DNA from: Candidatus Saccharimonadota bacterium | Lineage (GTDB): Bacteria > Patescibacteriota > Saccharimonadia > Saccharimonadales > Saccharimonadaceae | Assembly: GCA_000503915.1 (NCBI GenBank) | Contig: CP006915.1 | Location: 813,465 to 845,464, forward strand | DNA length: 32,000 nt | Reading direction: 5' to 3' | Part shown: piece after piece, positions 927 through 26,199 of the stretch | Position numbering within the stretch: position 1 is the first letter of the stretch | Layout of the letters: every line of letters begins with the position of its first letter | Translations under genes and position numbers: made by a program | The notes under the pieces: model-generated | Told to the model about the DNA's origin: nothing | Database searches by the model: none | What the model saw: only the letters and a program-made list of their open reading frames with translations

Positions 927-1115
927 TGGGGTTCGAATGGATTCGACCGACGTTCCGCCGGCTCGAAACTTCGCGACTGAAAGCGCAGCTTTCATCGGAA
1001 GGTTTCCTTGCGAATTGCCACCGGCAATCCTCACCCCGATCACGGGACTCTGGACCTCGGTGCCTTACCCCCGCCTGTCTGTCCGACAGGACGGGCAGGA
1101 CTTGGCTAATCCCCA
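927..1115 (-). pseudogene. tRNA-Gln-derived element (degenerate tandem copy) with a 32-nt hairpin module in the D-loop and a roughly 92-nt structured insertion in the T-arm region. Function unknown.
   Basis: The minus-strand read starts TGGGGATTAGCCAAG, identical to the first 15 nt of the neighbouring tRNA-Gln. After a 33-nt insert it continues TAAGGCA..TCCCGTGATCGGGG (14/14 with tRNA-Gln), then about 92 nt, and ends TCGAATCCATTCGAACCCCAC. The anticodon stem does not pair and no CCA is encoded. Confidence 0.5.
1068..1099 (+). repeat. GC-rich hairpin module, copy 1 (CCCCCGCCTGTCTGTCCGACAGGACGGGCAGG).
   Basis: Near-identical to 26154-26184 (2 differences) and shares its ends with 24941-24967. 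The stem GCCTGTCTG/CAGGACGGGC contains G-U pairs only when read on the plus strand. Confidence 0.8.
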
Positions 1116-7791: not shown

Positions 7792-8151
7792 ATGAAAGAT
7801 GTGTTGGATAAAACCCCGAACAAGCTTCGGACTTCGACGGTAGCTATTGTAGCTGTCATGAGCGGTATCGCACTTAATAGCTGCACCGCCGCTGACAAAG
7901 GAACTGCACCAACTCCCGCCTGTGCTATCCACATTGAGCGGGGTGATACGCTCTATAGTATCGCCGCTGCGAGCGACATGGATATACGCGAAGGCATTGC
8001 CGAGATGAAACAGATTAATTCAGGTGTCGACGCCGGTCATCTAAGCATTGGAGACGATGTGGCGATCAGCTCACAGATGTGTCAGGATATTATTGGCAAC
8101 AAAAAAAATACCTTGGATCTGCGCCCACTACACGACGATCTCAATCAGTAA
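7792..8151 (+). CDS. LysM-domain lipoprotein.
   Basis: Signal peptide with a lipobox-like LNSC, then a LysM motif (IERGDTLYSIAAAS...INSGVDAGHLSIGDDVAI). The 3' end overlaps the leuS stop by 11 nt (convergent). Confidence 0.75.
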   Translation: MKDVLDKTPNKLRTSTVAIVAVMSGIALNSCTAADKGTAPTPACAIHIERGDTLYSIAAASDMDIREGIAEMKQINSGVDAGHLSIGDDVAISSQMCQDIIGNKKNTLDLRPLHDDLNQ

Positions 8152-11044
8152 TTACAATACTCACCAGCCGGCCGGGAACGTAAATCGTCTTGGCCGGTTT
8201 TTGTGTACCGACAAATTTCTGAACATTTTCATCAGCCAGAGCCGCCGCGATAGCATCTTCTTTACTGACATCTTTAGCGAGCTCGAGTTTGGCACGTACT
8301 TTCCCGTTTACCTGAACAACGATTGTCGCTGTTTCGCTAGTCGTGAGCGCCTCATCCCACGATGGCCATGGTGCAGTATCGAGCGACTCTTCGTGTCCGA
8401 GCTGCTGCCAAAGTTCAGCGCTGAGATGTGGCGCAAATGGAGCGAGTAGCTGGGTCATGGTCTCTAATACGTCACGCCATGGTTTATCACTAAATCCATC
8501 AGCTTTTAATTTGTATAGTTCATTCGTTGCTTCCATCATAGCTGCAATGGCGGTATTGAAACTCAATCGGTGCAAGTCTTCGGTGACTTTTTTCGTCGTC
8601 TTATGTTGCAAACGACGAACCGCATCGTCCTGCTGGGTGTCCGCTACTGTGTCAGCTGCTAGATATTCCTGTGTCAATGTCCAGACGCGCGTCAGGAAAC
8701 GATAGACACCGGCTAGGCCATTAGTGCTCCAGGCTGAATCTTCTTCGATTGGACCAACAAACAGCAGGAAGGTGCGTAATGCATCAGCGCCGTAGCCTTG
8801 GTCGATAATGTCGAGTGGGTCAATGACATTGCCAAGGCTTTTACTCATCTTGCGGCCGTCCTCGGCTTGGATCAGGCCGTGGTAGACTAGTTTCTTAACT
8901 GGCTCCTTGCTCGGTACCAGTCCCATGTCGTAAAAAACGTGATTCCAGAAGCGGACGTAGAGCAAATGCGCGACCGCATGGTCGCCACCAACATAGTAGT
9001 CAACCGGTGTCCAGTAGTCGGCCTTTTCTTGCGACCAGGCTTGCTGGTCGTTCTTCGGGTCGGTGTAGCGCAGCAAATACCAGCTACTACAGGCGTAGCC
9101 GTCCATGGTATCAGTTTCACGCTTTGCTGGGCCACCACACTCAGGACAGGTCGTATTAACCCAGTCGTCGACGCGCGCCAGCACTGATTTACCGTCACCT
9201 TTTGGGGCGTAATCTTCTACTTCTGGCAGCACCACTGGCAGCTGATCTTCTGGCACCGCCACGGCGCCATCTTTTTCACAATGAATGATCGGAATCGGCG
9301 CACCCCAATAACGCTGGCGAGAAATCAGCCAATCGCGCATTTTGTAGGTGGTCATCATCTTGCCTGTTCCCTGCTCTTCCAGCCAGGCAACAACCTCTTC
9401 ACGCGCCTCACTCGTCGGCATGCCGTCAAAAGCTCCAGAATTTACCAGTACACCCTCATTGGCATATACGGCTGTCTTTTGATCTAGATACGCCAGCCAT
9501 ACTTTTAGATGCGTCTGCCAGGTAAGCTTTTTAGCTACCTGATCTTTTGTAATCCACTCAATAGTGTGCTTGCCCTCATCAACTTCACTTCTGATTTGAG
9601 TTTTTGAGCCAAGCATAACTTCATATGCAGCACCTCTATAGCGATGATTCACCCCTTTGTCCGGACGATAGGCAATACCGGAAATGATTGGGAAAATTTT
9701 TCTGACACTTACAATATCTGTATAGCCCGTCTCCTCAGCTACTTCCCTACGTAGTCCGTCTTCCGTCGAAGAGTCTTCTTGTTCAATCCCTCCCCCAACG
9801 AAGTGCGTATCGGTCACCCCACCTTCTGTTGAAGTTTGTAGCAAGTAATTACCCTCGCCATCGCAGATGACTGCATCCGCCACGTTTCGATCGATAGTCT
9901 CAGCGTCTAACTCTGGCTCAAAGTGATCGCCACTAATATGATGCTCAGCAACCACTTGCACTACTGGCAATTTGTACTTCTCTGCAAATTCATAATCACG
10001 TTCGTCATGAGCCGGCACAGCCATGATAGCGCCCGTGCCGTAGCCACCAAGGACATAGTCGGCAATCCAGATAGGAATTTTTTCTCCCGTGGCTGGATTG
10101 ATGGCATAGGAGCCGGTAAATACACCTGTTTTTTCTTTGCCTTCACTTTGACGCTCAATCTCAGACTTTTTCAGCGCCGTTTTTACATAAGCGTCGACAT
10201 TTTCGTGCGTCTCATCAGTCGTCAGTGCCTCGACTAGCGAATGCTCCGGCGCAATAACCATGAAGGTAGCACCGAAAATCGTGTCGGGACGCGTCGTAAA
10301 TACGGTGAGCGTTTCATCATGCTCGGCGACCAAGAACTCAATCTCGGCACCCTGGCTTTTGCCGATCCAGTTGGTTTGGGCAGTTTTGATCTTTTCCGGC
10401 CAGTCGAGCGCCGGGATTTCTTCGAGCAGCGCATCGGCATAGTCAGTAATCTTGAAAAACCATTGGCGAATATTCTTTTTTTCAGCCAGTGGATCGTCGG
10501 GACCATCGTGGCGCCAGCACTTGCCATTGATAACCTGCTCGTTGGCAAGCACCGTTTGATCGATCGGACACCACCATTGCAACGAATCTTTCTGATAAGC
10601 CAGGCCACGCTCAAAAAACTTGGTAAAAACCCATTGGGTCCAGCGATAGTAGTCGGGGTCGGACGTATTGATCTCGCGCGACCAGTCGATACTGGCGCCG
10701 AGCCGTTTTAGCTGATGAGTAAAATTGGCGATATTGTCTTTGGTCACTTTGGCCGGTGCCATGCCGGTCTTGATCGCGTAATTTTCAGCGGGCAGTCCAA
10801 ATGCATCCCAACCCATCGGGTTCATGACATTGCGGCCGTGTGCACGTTGAAAACGGGCAATTGCATCGACAACCGAATGTTCCATAGCATGGCCAGAGTG
10901 CATACCGGCGGCACTTGGGTACGGGAACATAGGAGAAATATAGAATTTTTCCCTATCGCCGCCGTCGCTTGCCTGGTAGCGGCGCTCGTCCGCCCAAACT
11001 TTTTGCCAGCCAGGCTCGATCTCACTCGGATTGTATCGCTGCAT
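8141..11044 (-). CDS. leuS: Leucine--tRNA ligase with an inserted NUDIX-like domain.
   Basis: 967 aa. HIGH-region variant (PYPSAAGMHSGHAMEH), CP1 editing domain, AHDERDYEFAEKYKLP, KMSKS. There are about 165 extra residues at positions roughly 366-530. Confidence 0.97.
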   Translation of the reverse strand: MQRYNPSEIEPGWQKVWADERRYQASDGGDREKFYISPMFPYPSAAGMHSGHAMEHSVVDAIARFQRAHGRNVMNPMGWDAFGLPAENYAIKTGMAPAKVTKDNIANFTHQLKRLGASIDWSREINTSDPDYYRWTQWVFTKFFERGLAYQKDSLQWWCPIDQTVLANEQVINGKCWRHDGPDDPLAEKKNIRQWFFKITDYADALLEEIPALDWPEKIKTAQTNWIGKSQGAEIEFLVAEHDETLTVFTTRPDTIFGATFMVIAPEHSLVEALTTDETHENVDAYVKTALKKSEIERQSEGKEKTGVFTGSYAINPATGEKIPIWIADYVLGGYGTGAIMAVPAHDERDYEFAEKYKLPVVQVVAEHHISGDHFEPELDAETIDRNVADAVICDGEGNYLLQTSTEGGVTDTHFVGGGIEQEDSSTEDGLRREVAEETGYTDIVSVRKIFPIISGIAYRPDKGVNHRYRGAAYEVMLGSKTQIRSEVDEGKHTIEWITKDQVAKKLTWQTHLKVWLAYLDQKTAVYANEGVLVNSGAFDGMPTSEAREEVVAWLEEQGTGKMMTTYKMRDWLISRQRYWGAPIPIIHCEKDGAVAVPEDQLPVVLPEVEDYAPKGDGKSVLARVDDWVNTTCPECGGPAKRETDTMDGYACSSWYLLRYTDPKNDQQAWSQEKADYWTPVDYYVGGDHAVAHLLYVRFWNHVFYDMGLVPSKEPVKKLVYHGLIQAEDGRKMSKSLGNVIDPLDIIDQGYGADALRTFLLFVGPIEEDSAWSTNGLAGVYRFLTRVWTLTQEYLAADTVADTQQDDAVRRLQHKTTKKVTEDLHRLSFNTAIAAMMEATNELYKLKADGFSDKPWRDVLETMTQLLAPFAPHLSAELWQQLGHEESLDTAPWPSWDEALTTSETATIVVQVNGKVRAKLELAKDVSKEDAIAAALADENVQKFVGTQKPAKTIYVPGRLVSIVITD

Positions 11045-18791: not shown

Positions 18792-18910
18792 CAGGGTTTC
18801 ACCTTTAACAGATCAAATAAGGCCGGCTTCTATTTTTGAAGAAACCGGGAGTCATAAATCATACATGCCAATTAAAAAACCGAGGCTAGGCCTCGATGTT
18901 TTAATTGGTG
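18792..18910. repeat. Left copy of the ~120-bp direct repeat.
   Basis: Aligns base for base with 24663-24782 apart from a few substitutions and a 1-nt indel. It contains two minus-strand terminator-like hairpins (CGAGGCctaGCCTCG + T6; CCGGTTTCTTcaaaaataGAAGCCGG). Confidence 0.85.
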
Positions 18911-24662: not shown

Positions 24663-24782
24663 CAGGGTCTCACCCTTAACAGATCAAATAAGGCCGGCTT
24701 CTATTTTTGAAGAAACCAGGAGTCATAAATCATACATACTAATTAAAAAACCGAGGGGCAAGCCTCGATGTCTTAATTGGTG
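24663..24782. repeat. Right copy of the ~120-bp direct repeat. Its last 5 nt are the 3' end of tRNA-Gly(GCC).
   Basis: See 18792-18910. Confidence 0.85.
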
Positions 24783-24853
24783 CGGGTTAGGAGACTCTAA
24801 CTCCTGGCCTCTTCCATGGCAAGGAAGCGCTCTAACAACTGAGCTAAACCCGC
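24778..24853 (-). tRNA. tRNA-Gly (anticodon GCC), CCA encoded.
   Basis: The reverse complement is GCGGGTTTAGCTCAGTTGTTAGAGCGCTTCCTTGCCATGGAAGAGGCCAGGAGTTAGAGTCTCCTAACCCGCACCA. All four stems pair perfectly. The D-loop is AGTTGTTA and the T-loop is TTAGAGT. Confidence 0.9.
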
Positions 24854-24900: not shown

Positions 24901-24977
24901 GAGCTTTCTTGGCCTGGCAACTCTTCACTCTAACAGCTGACCTGCCCGCCGGGCGTGACAGGCGGGGCTAAACCCGC
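24901..24977 (-). pseudogene. Degenerate tRNA-Gly(GCC)-like copy carrying the hairpin module in its D-loop.
   Basis: The minus-strand read is GCGGGTTTAG, then CCCCGCCTGTCACGCCCGGCGGGCAGG, then TCAGCTGTTAGAG TGAAGAGTTGCCA GGCCAAGAAAGCTC. It is collinear with tRNA-Gly(GCC), but the anticodon stem is unpaired and the T-arm and 3' end are missing. Confidence 0.5.
24941..24967 (-). repeat. GC-rich hairpin module, copy 2 (variant core).
   Basis: The minus-strand read CCCCGCCTGTC-ACGCCCGGC-GGGCAGG shares both termini with the copies at 1068 and 26154. Confidence 0.6.
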
Positions 24978-25070: not shown

Positions 25071-25146
25071 TGGTGGCTCCTACTGGACTTGAACCAGTGA
25101 CACAAGGCTCTTCAGGCCTCTGCTCTACCAACTGAGCTAAAGAGCC
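25071..25146 (-). tRNA. tRNA-Phe (anticodon GAA), CCA encoded.
   Basis: The reverse complement is GGCTCTTTAGCTCAGTTGGTAGAGCAGAGGCCTGAAGAGCCTTGTGTCACTGGTTCAAGTCCAGTAGGAGCCACCA, a canonical cloverleaf. Confidence 0.9.
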
Positions 25147-25349
25147 TCGTCGGCGTTCACTATCAACCTCAACTTTTAAACTAGTTTAAAAGTTTCGATT
25201 TCCCGTTACGCCTCCTCTCAATTTTTCAAACAGTCGCTTTGCTCCTTGGTTTAAAAAATTGGGGTGCCGCAACACGGAACGAGAACACTCATCATTGTAG
25301 CTAAACTAGGGTAAAATCACAAGTCAAACCTTGCTACAATGAACTTAAC

Positions 25350-25394
25350 GCGGGTATCGTATAACGGCCACCCGGGTGACCTTCCCCCGCCTGT
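25350..25394 (+). other. 5' part of a split tRNA-like unit (acceptor strand GCGGGTA plus a D-arm-like segment), ending in the left half of the hairpin module.
   Basis: GCGGGTATCGTATAACGGCCACCCGGGTGACCTTCCCCCGCCTGT. The first 18 nt parallel the 5' end of tRNA-Gly(CCC). GCGGGTA is exactly complementary to TACCCGC at 26189-26195. A TACAAT box ends 9 nt upstream. Confidence 0.5.
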
Positions 25395-25396
25395 AC

Positions 25397-25470
25397 GCGA
25401 GATTAGTATAGTGGCAGTACGCTTGCTTCCCAAGCAAGAGGCGCCAGTTCGATTCTGGTATCTCGCACCA
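25397..25470 (+). tRNA. tRNA-Gly (anticodon CCC), CCA encoded.
   Basis: GCGAGATTAGTATAGTGGCAGTACGCTTGCTTCCCAAGCAAGAGGCGCCAGTTCGATTCTGGTATCTCGCACCA folds as a cloverleaf with anticodon loop TTCCCAA. Confidence 0.9.
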
Positions 25471-25591: not shown

Positions 25592-25996
25592 ATGGAGATG
25601 ACCCAGTCAATCAAGCTGGTCGGAAAGCCCGAAGACGTCATCCGAGATGCAACACTGCTGCAAGAGTTCTTGGAGGGTCTGGAGACTGCCGCGGGCGAGA
25701 TCCCCGATGTCGGCAATCACCAAGAGTGGCCGACATACGTCGATGGGCTTCTGGAGTTCCAGGGCGCTAGCGTGACTGTTTCCGAGAAGCTCGGACGTAC
25801 GCTGTCGATCCTCCTGTATGCTCATGGCTCACTGGTCACGCGCAAGACACTCCAAGACATCGTTGTCGAAGAAGGCAAGAAGCCCAACGAGGCACTAGTG
25901 CGGATATCACGTCTGCGCGCACTGCTGTCGAAGGACATGCCTAGACTCGAGATCGAGTCAGTGGGTACCGGCTACAGGCTCAAGATCGTCGACTGA
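25592..25996 (+). CDS. Stand-alone OmpR/PhoB-type winged-helix DNA-binding protein (no receiver domain).
   Basis: The C-terminus LVTRKTLQDIV...EALVRISRLRALLSKD...IESVGTGYRLKIVD matches the Trans_reg_C pattern. The start was moved to the ATG at 25592, because the track TTG at 25574 includes the ribosome-binding site. It is about 55% GC in a counted 60-nt sample, against about 18% in the upstream spacer. Confidence 0.7.
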   Translation: MEMTQSIKLVGKPEDVIRDATLLQEFLEGLETAAGEIPDVGNHQEWPTYVDGLLEFQGASVTVSEKLGRTLSILLYAHGSLVTRKTLQDIVVEEGKKPNEALVRISRLRALLSKDMPRLEIESVGTGYRLKIVD

Positions 25997-26141
25997 CAAT
26001 CAGTTCCTCCATCCCATCACCCTCATGAAAGGAATGCACCCTCTGGGAGCCCCTCAAATGAGGGTGCTTCCATATCTGACAAAGTTCTAAGTGTGTCGGT
26101 GAGGGGGCACCAAAATACGAGACGGGAGGCAAGGTTGAGAC

Positions 26142-26199
26142 AGGAGTTCGACTCCCCGCCTGTCTGTTCGACAGAACGGGCAGGTCCTTACCCGCACCA
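26142..26199 (+). other. 3' part of the split tRNA-like unit: T-arm-like AGGAGTTCGACTCC, hairpin module, then TCCTTACCCGC-A-CCA.
   Basis: The 3' end parallels tRNA-Gly(GCC) (..CTCCTAACCCGCACCA). It contains module copy 3 at 26154-26184 (CCCCGCCTGTCTGTTCGACAGAACGGGCAGG). Confidence 0.5.

Follow-up and report, generated by a model that had tools for sequence, protein, structure and literature searches.

A GC-rich 30-nt hairpin insertion in tRNA relics of Saccharibacteria and its link to GIY-YIG open reading frames

Introduction

Why does one short GC-rich hairpin recur inside broken copies of tRNA genes that lie close to intact ones? This question is raised by a 32,000-nt stretch of DNA from a Candidatus Saccharimonadota bacterium (CP006915.1, positions 813,465-845,464, forward strand), which is referred to below as the window and is part of a bacterial chromosome, that of a member of the Saccharibacteria in the candidate phyla radiation (CPR). 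A preliminary description of the window had noticed the hairpin, here called the module, in tRNA-like sequence upstream of real tRNA genes and had offered two readings: the footprint or att site of a mobile element that targets tRNA genes and supplies a replacement tRNA, or a functional leader structure.

In the present analysis, the module was followed from the window into related genomes and metagenome contigs, whose loci carry L-numbers as labels. We consider that the module is probably a 30-bp GC-rich selfish hairpin insertion element of Saccharibacteria (CCCGCCTGTCTG-core-CGGGCAGG), tied to tRNA-targeting GIY-YIG cassettes, and that the copies in the window are relics of such cassettes without the open reading frame (ORF).

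Results

With at most one mismatch, CCCCGCCTGTC occurs at four sites in the window, namely 1069-1079 (+), 24957-24967 (-), 25385-25395 (+, one mismatch) and 26154-26164 (+), against 0.39 expected by shuffling, and none of 100 shuffles reached four. Three of the sites belong to complete modules: copy A (1069-1099, +), copy B (24941-24967, -) and copy C (26154-26184, +). The preliminary description had pointed to these three, placing the start of the first one nucleotide too early, at 1068; their occurrence is real and above chance. A covariance model built on 21 module variants (R1) was scanned over the window and returned copies A, C and B only (55.4, 55.2 and 24.2 bits), together with a very weak match (7.4 bits) at a probable truncated left end of the module (copy D, CCCCGCCTGTA, 25385-25395, +), which stands 1 nt before tRNA-Gly(CCC). 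This 11-nt half-module, reported before as 25385-25394, was found with one mismatch and on its own has no significance.

As a unit, copy A is the 30-nt sequence CCCGCCTGTCTGTCCGACAGGACGGGCAGG (1070-1099, +), or 31 nt with the C at 1069 in front, and it folds as RNA at -19.8 kcal/mol (z = -3.9). Copy B is a 26-nt unit with a variant core (24941-24966, -; E = 0.003). Copy C is a canonical 30-nt unit (26155-26184, +), and identical copies of its 31-mer are present in at least four species. Copies A and C differ at two positions, as had been noted; these are not a change from U-G to U-A, but the two sides of one base pair, C-G in copy A and U-A in copy C, and are thus compensatory.

The hosts of these copies were compared with the real tRNA genes of the window, of which ARAGORN and Rfam call four: tRNA-Gln(CUG) (823-896, -), tRNA-Gly(GCC) (24778-24853, -), tRNA-Phe (25071-25146, -) and tRNA-Gly(CCC) (25397-25470, +). 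None of the tRNA-like hosts was called as a tRNA by either program. When the 30-nt unit was taken out of the host and the rest was aligned to the window tRNAs, the similarity was specific to the cognate tRNA in each of the three cases, and its score was matched by 0 of 1000 shuffles. The host of copy A (927-1115, -) gave a 52-nt alignment to tRNA-Gln (z = 26.8). It is a degenerate full-length tRNA-Gln copy with two inserts, 30 nt upstream of the intact gene; its anticodon arm, T-arm and acceptor 3' strand are degraded, a sigma-70-like TTGAGA-17-TACAAT precedes it at 1158-1130 (by eye), and its layout recurs in L141 and L160/L161. Copy A occupies the D-loop of this relic in the opposite polarity. 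Copy B lies in a tRNA-Gly(GCC) 5' fragment, made up of the acceptor 5' strand and the D-arm (24928-24977, -; 23/24 nt, z = 13.9), from which weaker similarity runs on to about 24900. It is inserted between TAGC and TCAG of the D-loop in the polarity of its host, and the orthologous Gly(GCC) relics of L128 and L154 have canonical modules in this position. Copy C splits a tRNA-Gly(GCC)-type 3' fragment with T-arm, acceptor 3' strand and CCA (26141-26199, +), which matches the 3' end of tRNA-Gly(GCC) without gaps at 26/29 nt (z = 13.6); it sits at the junction of T-loop and T-stem, in the polarity of the host.

The module hosts in the window are therefore tRNA fragments or degenerate tRNA copies. 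The Gln-like and Gly(GCC)-like copies, the interruption of two D-loops (copies A and B) and the inconstant polarity of the module relative to its host all stand as first described, and the similarity to tRNA holds under alignment statistics for copies A, B and C. It does not extend to the supposed tRNA-Gly-like 5' fragment before tRNA-Gly(CCC), as 25348-25395 has no significant similarity to any window tRNA (z about 0). The place of copy C at a T-loop/T-stem junction and the second insert of the Gln-like relic, described below, are new.

The module is a hairpin-forming palindrome with covariation. Its 11-bp stem pairs positions 6-16 with 21-31 around a loop of 4-5 nt and leaves the 5' CCCCG unpaired, and 95% of cells are paired across the 21 distinct variants. 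Covariation was seen at the three pairs that were free to vary under the search pattern, with 0 of 500 shuffles reaching the observed value; pair 15-23, for example, is CG in 8, UA in 7 and AU in 4 variants, and pair 16-22 is CG in 15, UG in 3 and UA in 2. Slid stem registers collapse, and a competing 6-bp fold (CCTGTC/GACAGG) was rejected, being without covariation support. As plus-sense RNA the module folds with -17.4 to -19.8 kcal/mol (z about -4). Read the other way, two G-U pairs turn into C-A and the fold is weaker, so that the wobbles, as previously stated, exist in the plus sense only; these two wobbles and the unpaired CCCCG are invariant among the copies. In length the unit is as a rule divisible by three (30 nt), with variants of about 26-31 nt, and by inspection the canonical module is free of stop codons in all six frames. 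No Rfam match to the module was obtained at the gathering and E <= 10 thresholds in the window and 20 related loci, where tRNA and rRNA were the only families matched.

The module behaves as a discrete 30-nt insertion that can take either orientation, has orthologous sites both filled and empty, and leaves its flanks undisturbed. In tRNA-derived hosts, taking out 30 nt (CCCGCC...GGGCAGG) brings back gap-free collinearity with the tRNA. In protein genes, the LeuRS of L145 carries the peptide GPARTVVQTG, a reverse-strand reading of the module, exactly opposite a 10-residue gap in the window LeuRS (52% identity). The RF1 genes of L107, L143 and L155 have an in-frame module that forms a clean 10-residue insertion relative to Thermus RF1, just upstream of ...YESGVHRVQR, and in-frame modules are also present in RluD-like and YjbR-like genes; the host genes confirmed are RF1, pseudouridine synthase and YjbR. 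A length that is a multiple of three, together with the lack of stop codons, allows the module to survive in frame in essential protein genes, besides non-essential DNA. Between TAGC and TCAG of tRNA-Arg(UCG), one and the same 30-mer stands in opposite orientations in L163 and L178, which points to independent or repeated insertion at this site and speaks against an RNA function that would depend on polarity in the host transcript. Turnover of the module is favoured by this inverted copy and by the differing module cores that stand at orthologous sites of Gln, Gly and Ile.

Distribution was assessed by a pattern scan with one genome per species, and the figures given here rest on the matches listed. 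Among them, all module-like matches come from metagenome-assembled genomes (MAGs) of Saccharibacteria/Saccharimonadales (L007 with two copies, L015, L022, L077, L082, L107 and L123), and the other 113 matches listed are GC-rich chance matches or belong to an unrelated repeat family. A stricter scan of metagenome contigs gave 40 loci, with family members at 35 of them. In all, at least about 45 family copies were collected from related genomes and metagenomes, at a density of about one per 15-90 kb of the contigs sampled.

Within 300 nt of a tRNA called by ARAGORN are 17 of 46 family copies (37%), against 2 of the 113 non-family pattern matches listed (1.8%), and further copies (window copy C, L007, L082, L150) lie in tRNA-like fragments without an intact tRNA in reach. 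By our own grouping, about 13 of 21 orthologous site groups are tRNA-linked, among them Gln, Gly(GCC), Arg(UCG), Arg(GCG), Met, Val, Ala and, in the spacers of rRNA operons, Ile; RF1, LeuRS, RluD, YjbR and four intergenic families make up the rest. The association with tRNA put forward in the preliminary description consequently holds as an enrichment: the module is dispersed and not exclusive to tRNAs, yet it is strongly enriched at them. Within tRNA sequence it enters at loop/stem junctions, between positions 13 and 14 in host polarity, at about 21 and 22 in opposite polarity, and at about 60 and 61 (copy C, L147).

Two repeats met in these scans deserve mention. At the contig end of L007 (3500-3662) there is a tandem array with a 74-nt period, each unit consisting of a tRNA 5' fragment (GCCGCCTTAGC/TCAGTTGGTA) and a module. 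The unrelated family is a 34-nt hairpin repeat, CCCCGCCTGTCCCGATAYAATCGGGGCGGGCAGG, always flanked by TGAA and a CGTGAACC-like sequence, in L008, L013, L026, L048, L055, L088 and L103 (Desulfobacterota and Stahlbacteria MAGs); it has the terminal motifs of the module and is not near tRNAs.

The link between module and nuclease gene was found in related loci. At three module loci a small GIY-YIG ORF (79-95 aa, PF01541) lies between a hairpin-bearing tRNA 5' fragment and an intact tRNA: L163 (2083-2448, PF01541), beside tRNA-Arg(UCG); L082 (120-460, PF01541), with a Trp-like tRNA and inverted modules on either side of the ORF; and L153 (2342-2760), beside tRNA-Ser, with other GC hairpins in the D-loop. 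A sample independent of the module was then provided by the homologues of the L163 protein, which gave 84 matches, with genomic context obtained for 8. At all distinct homologue loci the tRNA starts between 38 nt inside the 3' end of the ORF and about 85 nt past it; the tRNAs concerned are Arg(GCG), Arg(UCU), Arg(UCG), Lys(UUU) or Lys(CUU), and every locus has a module-family or similar GC hairpin beside a duplicated piece of the 5' end of that tRNA. Hairpins that lie no more than about 55 nt from the ORF start codon gave R1 scores of 26-48 bits at the Arg and Lys(UUU) loci. At the Lys(CUU) loci L174-L177 the model scores just 16.5 bits (E = 0.12), and in the Lys(CUU)-type loci L173 and L183-L185 there is no R1 match, the GC hairpins having been spotted by eye.

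The order in L167 is fragment with module, 23 nt, a 243-nt ORF, 4 nt and tRNA-Arg(GCG). Its orthologous locus in L153 has the same upstream flank, fragment, module and tRNA-Arg(GCG), with 18 nt in place of the ORF. The module is thus physically linked to GIY-YIG ORFs in tRNA D-arms, with ORF-bearing and ORF-less alleles, and the comparison of L153 with L167 suggests that the arrangement of fragment, hairpin and real tRNA in the window represents leftovers after loss of the ORF. Complete replacement tRNAs also occur, as indicated by L130 (4925-5118), where one otherwise perfect, module-bearing tRNA-Val(GAC) encloses an intact tRNA-Val(GAC) in its D-loop, and the promoter-like and terminator-like sequences belong to the outer gene. 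In addition, some of the ORFs among L163, L082, L153 and L167-L185 overlap the first 10-38 nt of the tRNA; RNase P cleavage there would leave a non-stop mRNA.

The second insert of the Gln-like relic, E95 (949-1033, -), is a sequence of about 87 nt with three hairpins, located in the T-loop. Compensatory changes were found in 20 of its 34 predicted pairs (5 sequences). An nhmmer search (E = 4e-20) added at least 15 copies from the Saccharibacteria DNA sampled; most of them again occupy the T-loop of a tRNA relic, and the loci include L139, L154, L131, L160, L153, L163, L150, L147 and L184/L185. It has no Rfam match, and a hammerhead-like identity was rejected because the copies do not share the CUGAUGA and GAAA cores and are folded by RNAalifold into three simple hairpins. 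The presence of both module and E95 in tRNA relics indicates that such relics collect several families of structured inserts. The rRNA operons of L131, L139 and L144 have a 16S-23S spacer with tRNA-Ala, tRNA-Ile and an extra tRNA-Ile relic that bears both module and E95.

The rest of the window has a bacterial gene content, with TrmD, LeuRS, RNase III, Mur ligase, Ddl, MgsA, an MMPL protein, a pilin-like protein and trehalase, and it also encodes an AlwI-type restriction-modification system. The window LeuRS (8141-11044, -) has a NUDIX domain inserted after the editing domain, at residues about 387-511, where the L145 orthologue also aligns. A 94-nt direct repeat of 95% identity (18792-18885 and 24663-24756, with 18874-18910 and 24746-24782 in addition) encloses a 5.9-kb low-GC island (about 38-42%) with the AlwI-type endonuclease, a D12 methyltransferase and an AIR-synthase-like gene, for which an exact-protein look-up found no record. 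The island adjoins the 3' end of tRNA-Gly(GCC), and the repeat is the downstream flank of this tRNA, not the tRNA itself. Between tRNA-Gly(CCC) and copy C stands a 134-aa ORF (25592-25996, +) with a weak winged-helix Trans_reg_C match, a good Shine-Dalgarno sequence and 57% GC; its exact protein was matched only on one 5.8-kb sediment-metagenome contig of the same organism. GCGGGTA of copy D is complementary to TACCCGC of copy C, as if the 25592-25996 segment had split one tRNA-Gly gene.

Discussion

The reading of the module as a selfish hairpin insertion element tied to GIY-YIG cassettes has several points to contend with. In the window itself no GIY-YIG ORF or remnant was found by tblastn (E <= 0.01), so that the interpretation of the window copies as relics leans on the related loci. 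The GIY-YIG proteins of ~80 aa consist of the catalytic domain only, which makes site-specific homing or transposase activity no more than putative. Solitary copies revealed no target consensus and no target-site duplication. The ends of the module were fixed in the search patterns, and conservation of the stem base is for this reason partly ascertainment; copies reached via GIY-YIG loci have mutated ends. Finally, the RF1 modules are identical at 30-31 of 31 positions while their flanks differ by about 27%, which requires selection on the sequence or repeated replacement and not neutral decay.

Selection of this kind is the core of the strongest rival explanation, in which the module is a host-beneficial motif, a conserved cis-element such as a site recognised by a DNA- or RNA-binding protein, an RNase III or other processing signal, or an uptake or segregation signal. 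It would account for a 31-mer that is identical in at least four species and nearly unchanged in RF1, for constant G-U wobbles and CCCCG, and for a stem kept by compensatory changes. A motif maintained by the host would not be expected, however, to be inserted as a unit opposite empty orthologous sites and in both orientations at one site, to take inconsistent positions and polarities relative to genes or tRNAs, or to lie so often in decaying tRNA fragments, and part of its apparent constancy at the ends is owed to the search pattern, as the mutated ends at the GIY-YIG loci illustrate. We therefore regard a host-beneficial motif as unlikely.

A functional pre-tRNA leader, in which the tRNA-like piece and the hairpin process or regulate the downstream tRNA, was one of the two readings offered at the outset. 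Several copies are 18-260 nt upstream of a tRNA with the same anticodon and are probably co-transcribed with it, and the Gln and Gly(GCC) layouts are conserved across species. Yet copies also lie downstream of tRNAs (L130, L131, L139, L147 and window copy C), as well as in protein genes and tRNA-free intergenic DNA; either polarity is found at the same site, and the host fragments are degenerate and of arbitrary length. Such a leader is accordingly quite improbable.

The other original reading has to be divided. A tRNA-targeting element that brings a replacement tRNA fits the related GIY-YIG loci and the nested tRNA-Val of L130. An att-site remnant of an integrase-mediated island does not, and is in our opinion very improbable, even though tRNA genes are classic integration sites and the restriction-modification island with its direct repeats adjoins tRNA-Gly(GCC). 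The island repeats (18792, 24663) are without the module, no integrase was found among the 20 window ORFs scanned, the displaced pieces are mostly 5' fragments tens of nucleotides from the intact gene rather than 3' fragments at the far end of an island, and in-frame copies in protein genes do not fit.

An intron-like sequence, with module and E95 removed from the RNA of functional tRNA genes, can hardly be credited: some hosts are otherwise perfect tRNAs (the outer tRNA-Val of L130 and the Trp-like gene of L082) and the loop/stem-junction insertion points resemble those of non-canonical archaeal introns, but the window hosts are clearly degenerate or truncated, an intact tRNA of the same anticodon is nearly always adjacent, and removal of 31 nt would break the frame in protein genes, so that the module must be translated there. 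We know of no bacterial splicing machinery for such sites.

Other candidates were rejected more directly. Archaeal-type splicing of a bulge-helix-bulge intron conflicts with the degenerate hosts and with translation of the module in ORFs. For a DNA uptake sequence the copies are much too sparse, and the insertion behaviour is wrong. Copies of the module are solitary, in disagreement with a CRISPR repeat, and in the sole array (L007) the "spacers" are identical tRNA fragments. IS200/IS605-type targeting lacks a conserved tetranucleotide 5' of the copies, and the 6 viral-contig matches are chance-like and give no ground for a viral origin.

For the selfish element with its GIY-YIG cassette, we propose the following course of events. 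A gene for a GIY-YIG nuclease of ~80 aa would insert into the D-arm of a tRNA gene, with duplication of the 5' part of the tRNA. The resulting order would be a displaced 5' fragment with the hairpin in its D-loop, the nuclease ORF and a regenerated intact tRNA, the hairpin being a regular component of such cassettes. Transcription of the ORF might start at the tRNA promoter, and RNase P might release it. Nuclease ORFs would later decay and be deleted, and what is left in the window would be a tRNA-like fragment with the hairpin and further structured inserts, E95 for one, close to a real tRNA of matching identity. As to the movement of the module, the hairpin may be mobilised by the GIY-YIG nuclease or by another enzyme acting in trans, by analogy with repetitive extragenic palindromic (REP) elements and their REP-associated tyrosine transposases (RAYT). 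Within the cassette, the hairpin may split the nuclease target in the displaced fragment and so confer immunity, or it may break up a direct repeat of roughly 24 nt that would otherwise delete the ORF and so stabilise the cassette. The full scheme, in which a minimal nuclease of ~80 aa colonises tRNA D-arms with 5' duplication and tRNA-promoter expression, mobilises the 30-nt hairpin in trans, and gains self-immunity or stability from it, is put forward tentatively, as a less probable reading.

Several known systems invite comparison. Rickettsia palindromic elements (RPEs) are likewise dispersed palindromic repeats with stable predicted hairpins in a reduced-genome bacterium, and they are kept at orthologous sites across species. 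The module has the features by which elements of this kind are judged, including multi-copy dispersal, a hairpin, and in-frame insertion with filled and empty orthologues. The likeness is drawn from the general description of RPEs, and since RPEs measure about 100-150 bp and the module 30 bp, homology to RPE families is unlikely. To our knowledge, nobody has connected RPEs with a nuclease gene or with duplication of tRNA genes.

The mobile GC clusters and hairpin elements of mitochondria in yeast, sponges, placozoans and Volvox (PMC2670323, PMC7813641, PMC5633667) form a second comparison. Like the module, these palindromes are rich in GC, measure about 30-50 bp and are set in a genome of lower GC; intergenic DNA, genes for tRNA and rRNA, and protein genes, there in frame, all harbour them, and free-standing endonuclease ORFs often stand beside them. 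They differ in being organellar and unrelated in sequence, and we know of no regenerated-tRNA architecture described for them.

REP elements, which are non-autonomous derivatives of a protein-coding element, resemble the module as short imperfect palindromes (20-40 nt), and the REP hairpin is probably recognised by a nuclease/transposase acting in trans. REPs are extragenic, have hundreds of copies and a 5' GTAG, and depend on a Y1 HUH transposase, whereas the module has a low copy number, intragenic copies and no GTAG, and its associated protein is of the GIY-YIG type. Among the window ORFs scanned there was no Y1 (IS200/IS605-like) RAYT gene.

The nuclease side of the system recalls T4 SegB, a GIY-YIG homing endonuclease encoded in a tRNA cluster (PMC2330249), which cleaves a tRNA gene and drives the inheritance, and even the amplification, of the tRNA region (PMC2330249, PMC13096335). 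The cassettes are SegB-like in having a GIY-YIG ORF among or against tRNA genes and in their presence/absence polymorphism (here L167 and L153). SegB, however, is a larger phage protein, while the Saccharibacterial GIY-YIG protein has about 80 aa, is chromosomal, lies inside a tRNA D-arm and is only predicted to cleave; the duplicated tRNA 5' part and the GC hairpin are likewise peculiar to the Saccharibacterial cassettes. Inserts that encode GIY-YIG proteins and are not introns are already known from the rRNA genes of CPR bacteria (PMC11270868). Full-text literature searches brought up no description of the module hairpin or of tRNA-duplicating GIY-YIG cassettes in CPR bacteria. We class the module as a palindromic selfish mini-element tied to a free-standing nuclease gene.

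For CPR genome annotation and alignment, the module matters as a source of pseudo-tRNA clutter and of 10-residue inserts in RF1 and LeuRS, and both module and E95, which have no match in Rfam, could become families there. If the proposed scheme is true, it would amount to an undescribed bacterial homing/transposition system, a partnership like that of REP and RAYT built on a different enzyme, and it would account for the nested tRNA fragments, including tRNA genes within tRNA genes, at CPR tRNA loci. It follows from the selfish reading that even streamlined genomes of ~1 Mb carry active selfish mini-elements, with tRNA genes as their landing pads. Should the GIY-YIG link prove causal, these bacteria would possess a compact nuclease/hairpin system that repairs its own essential target.

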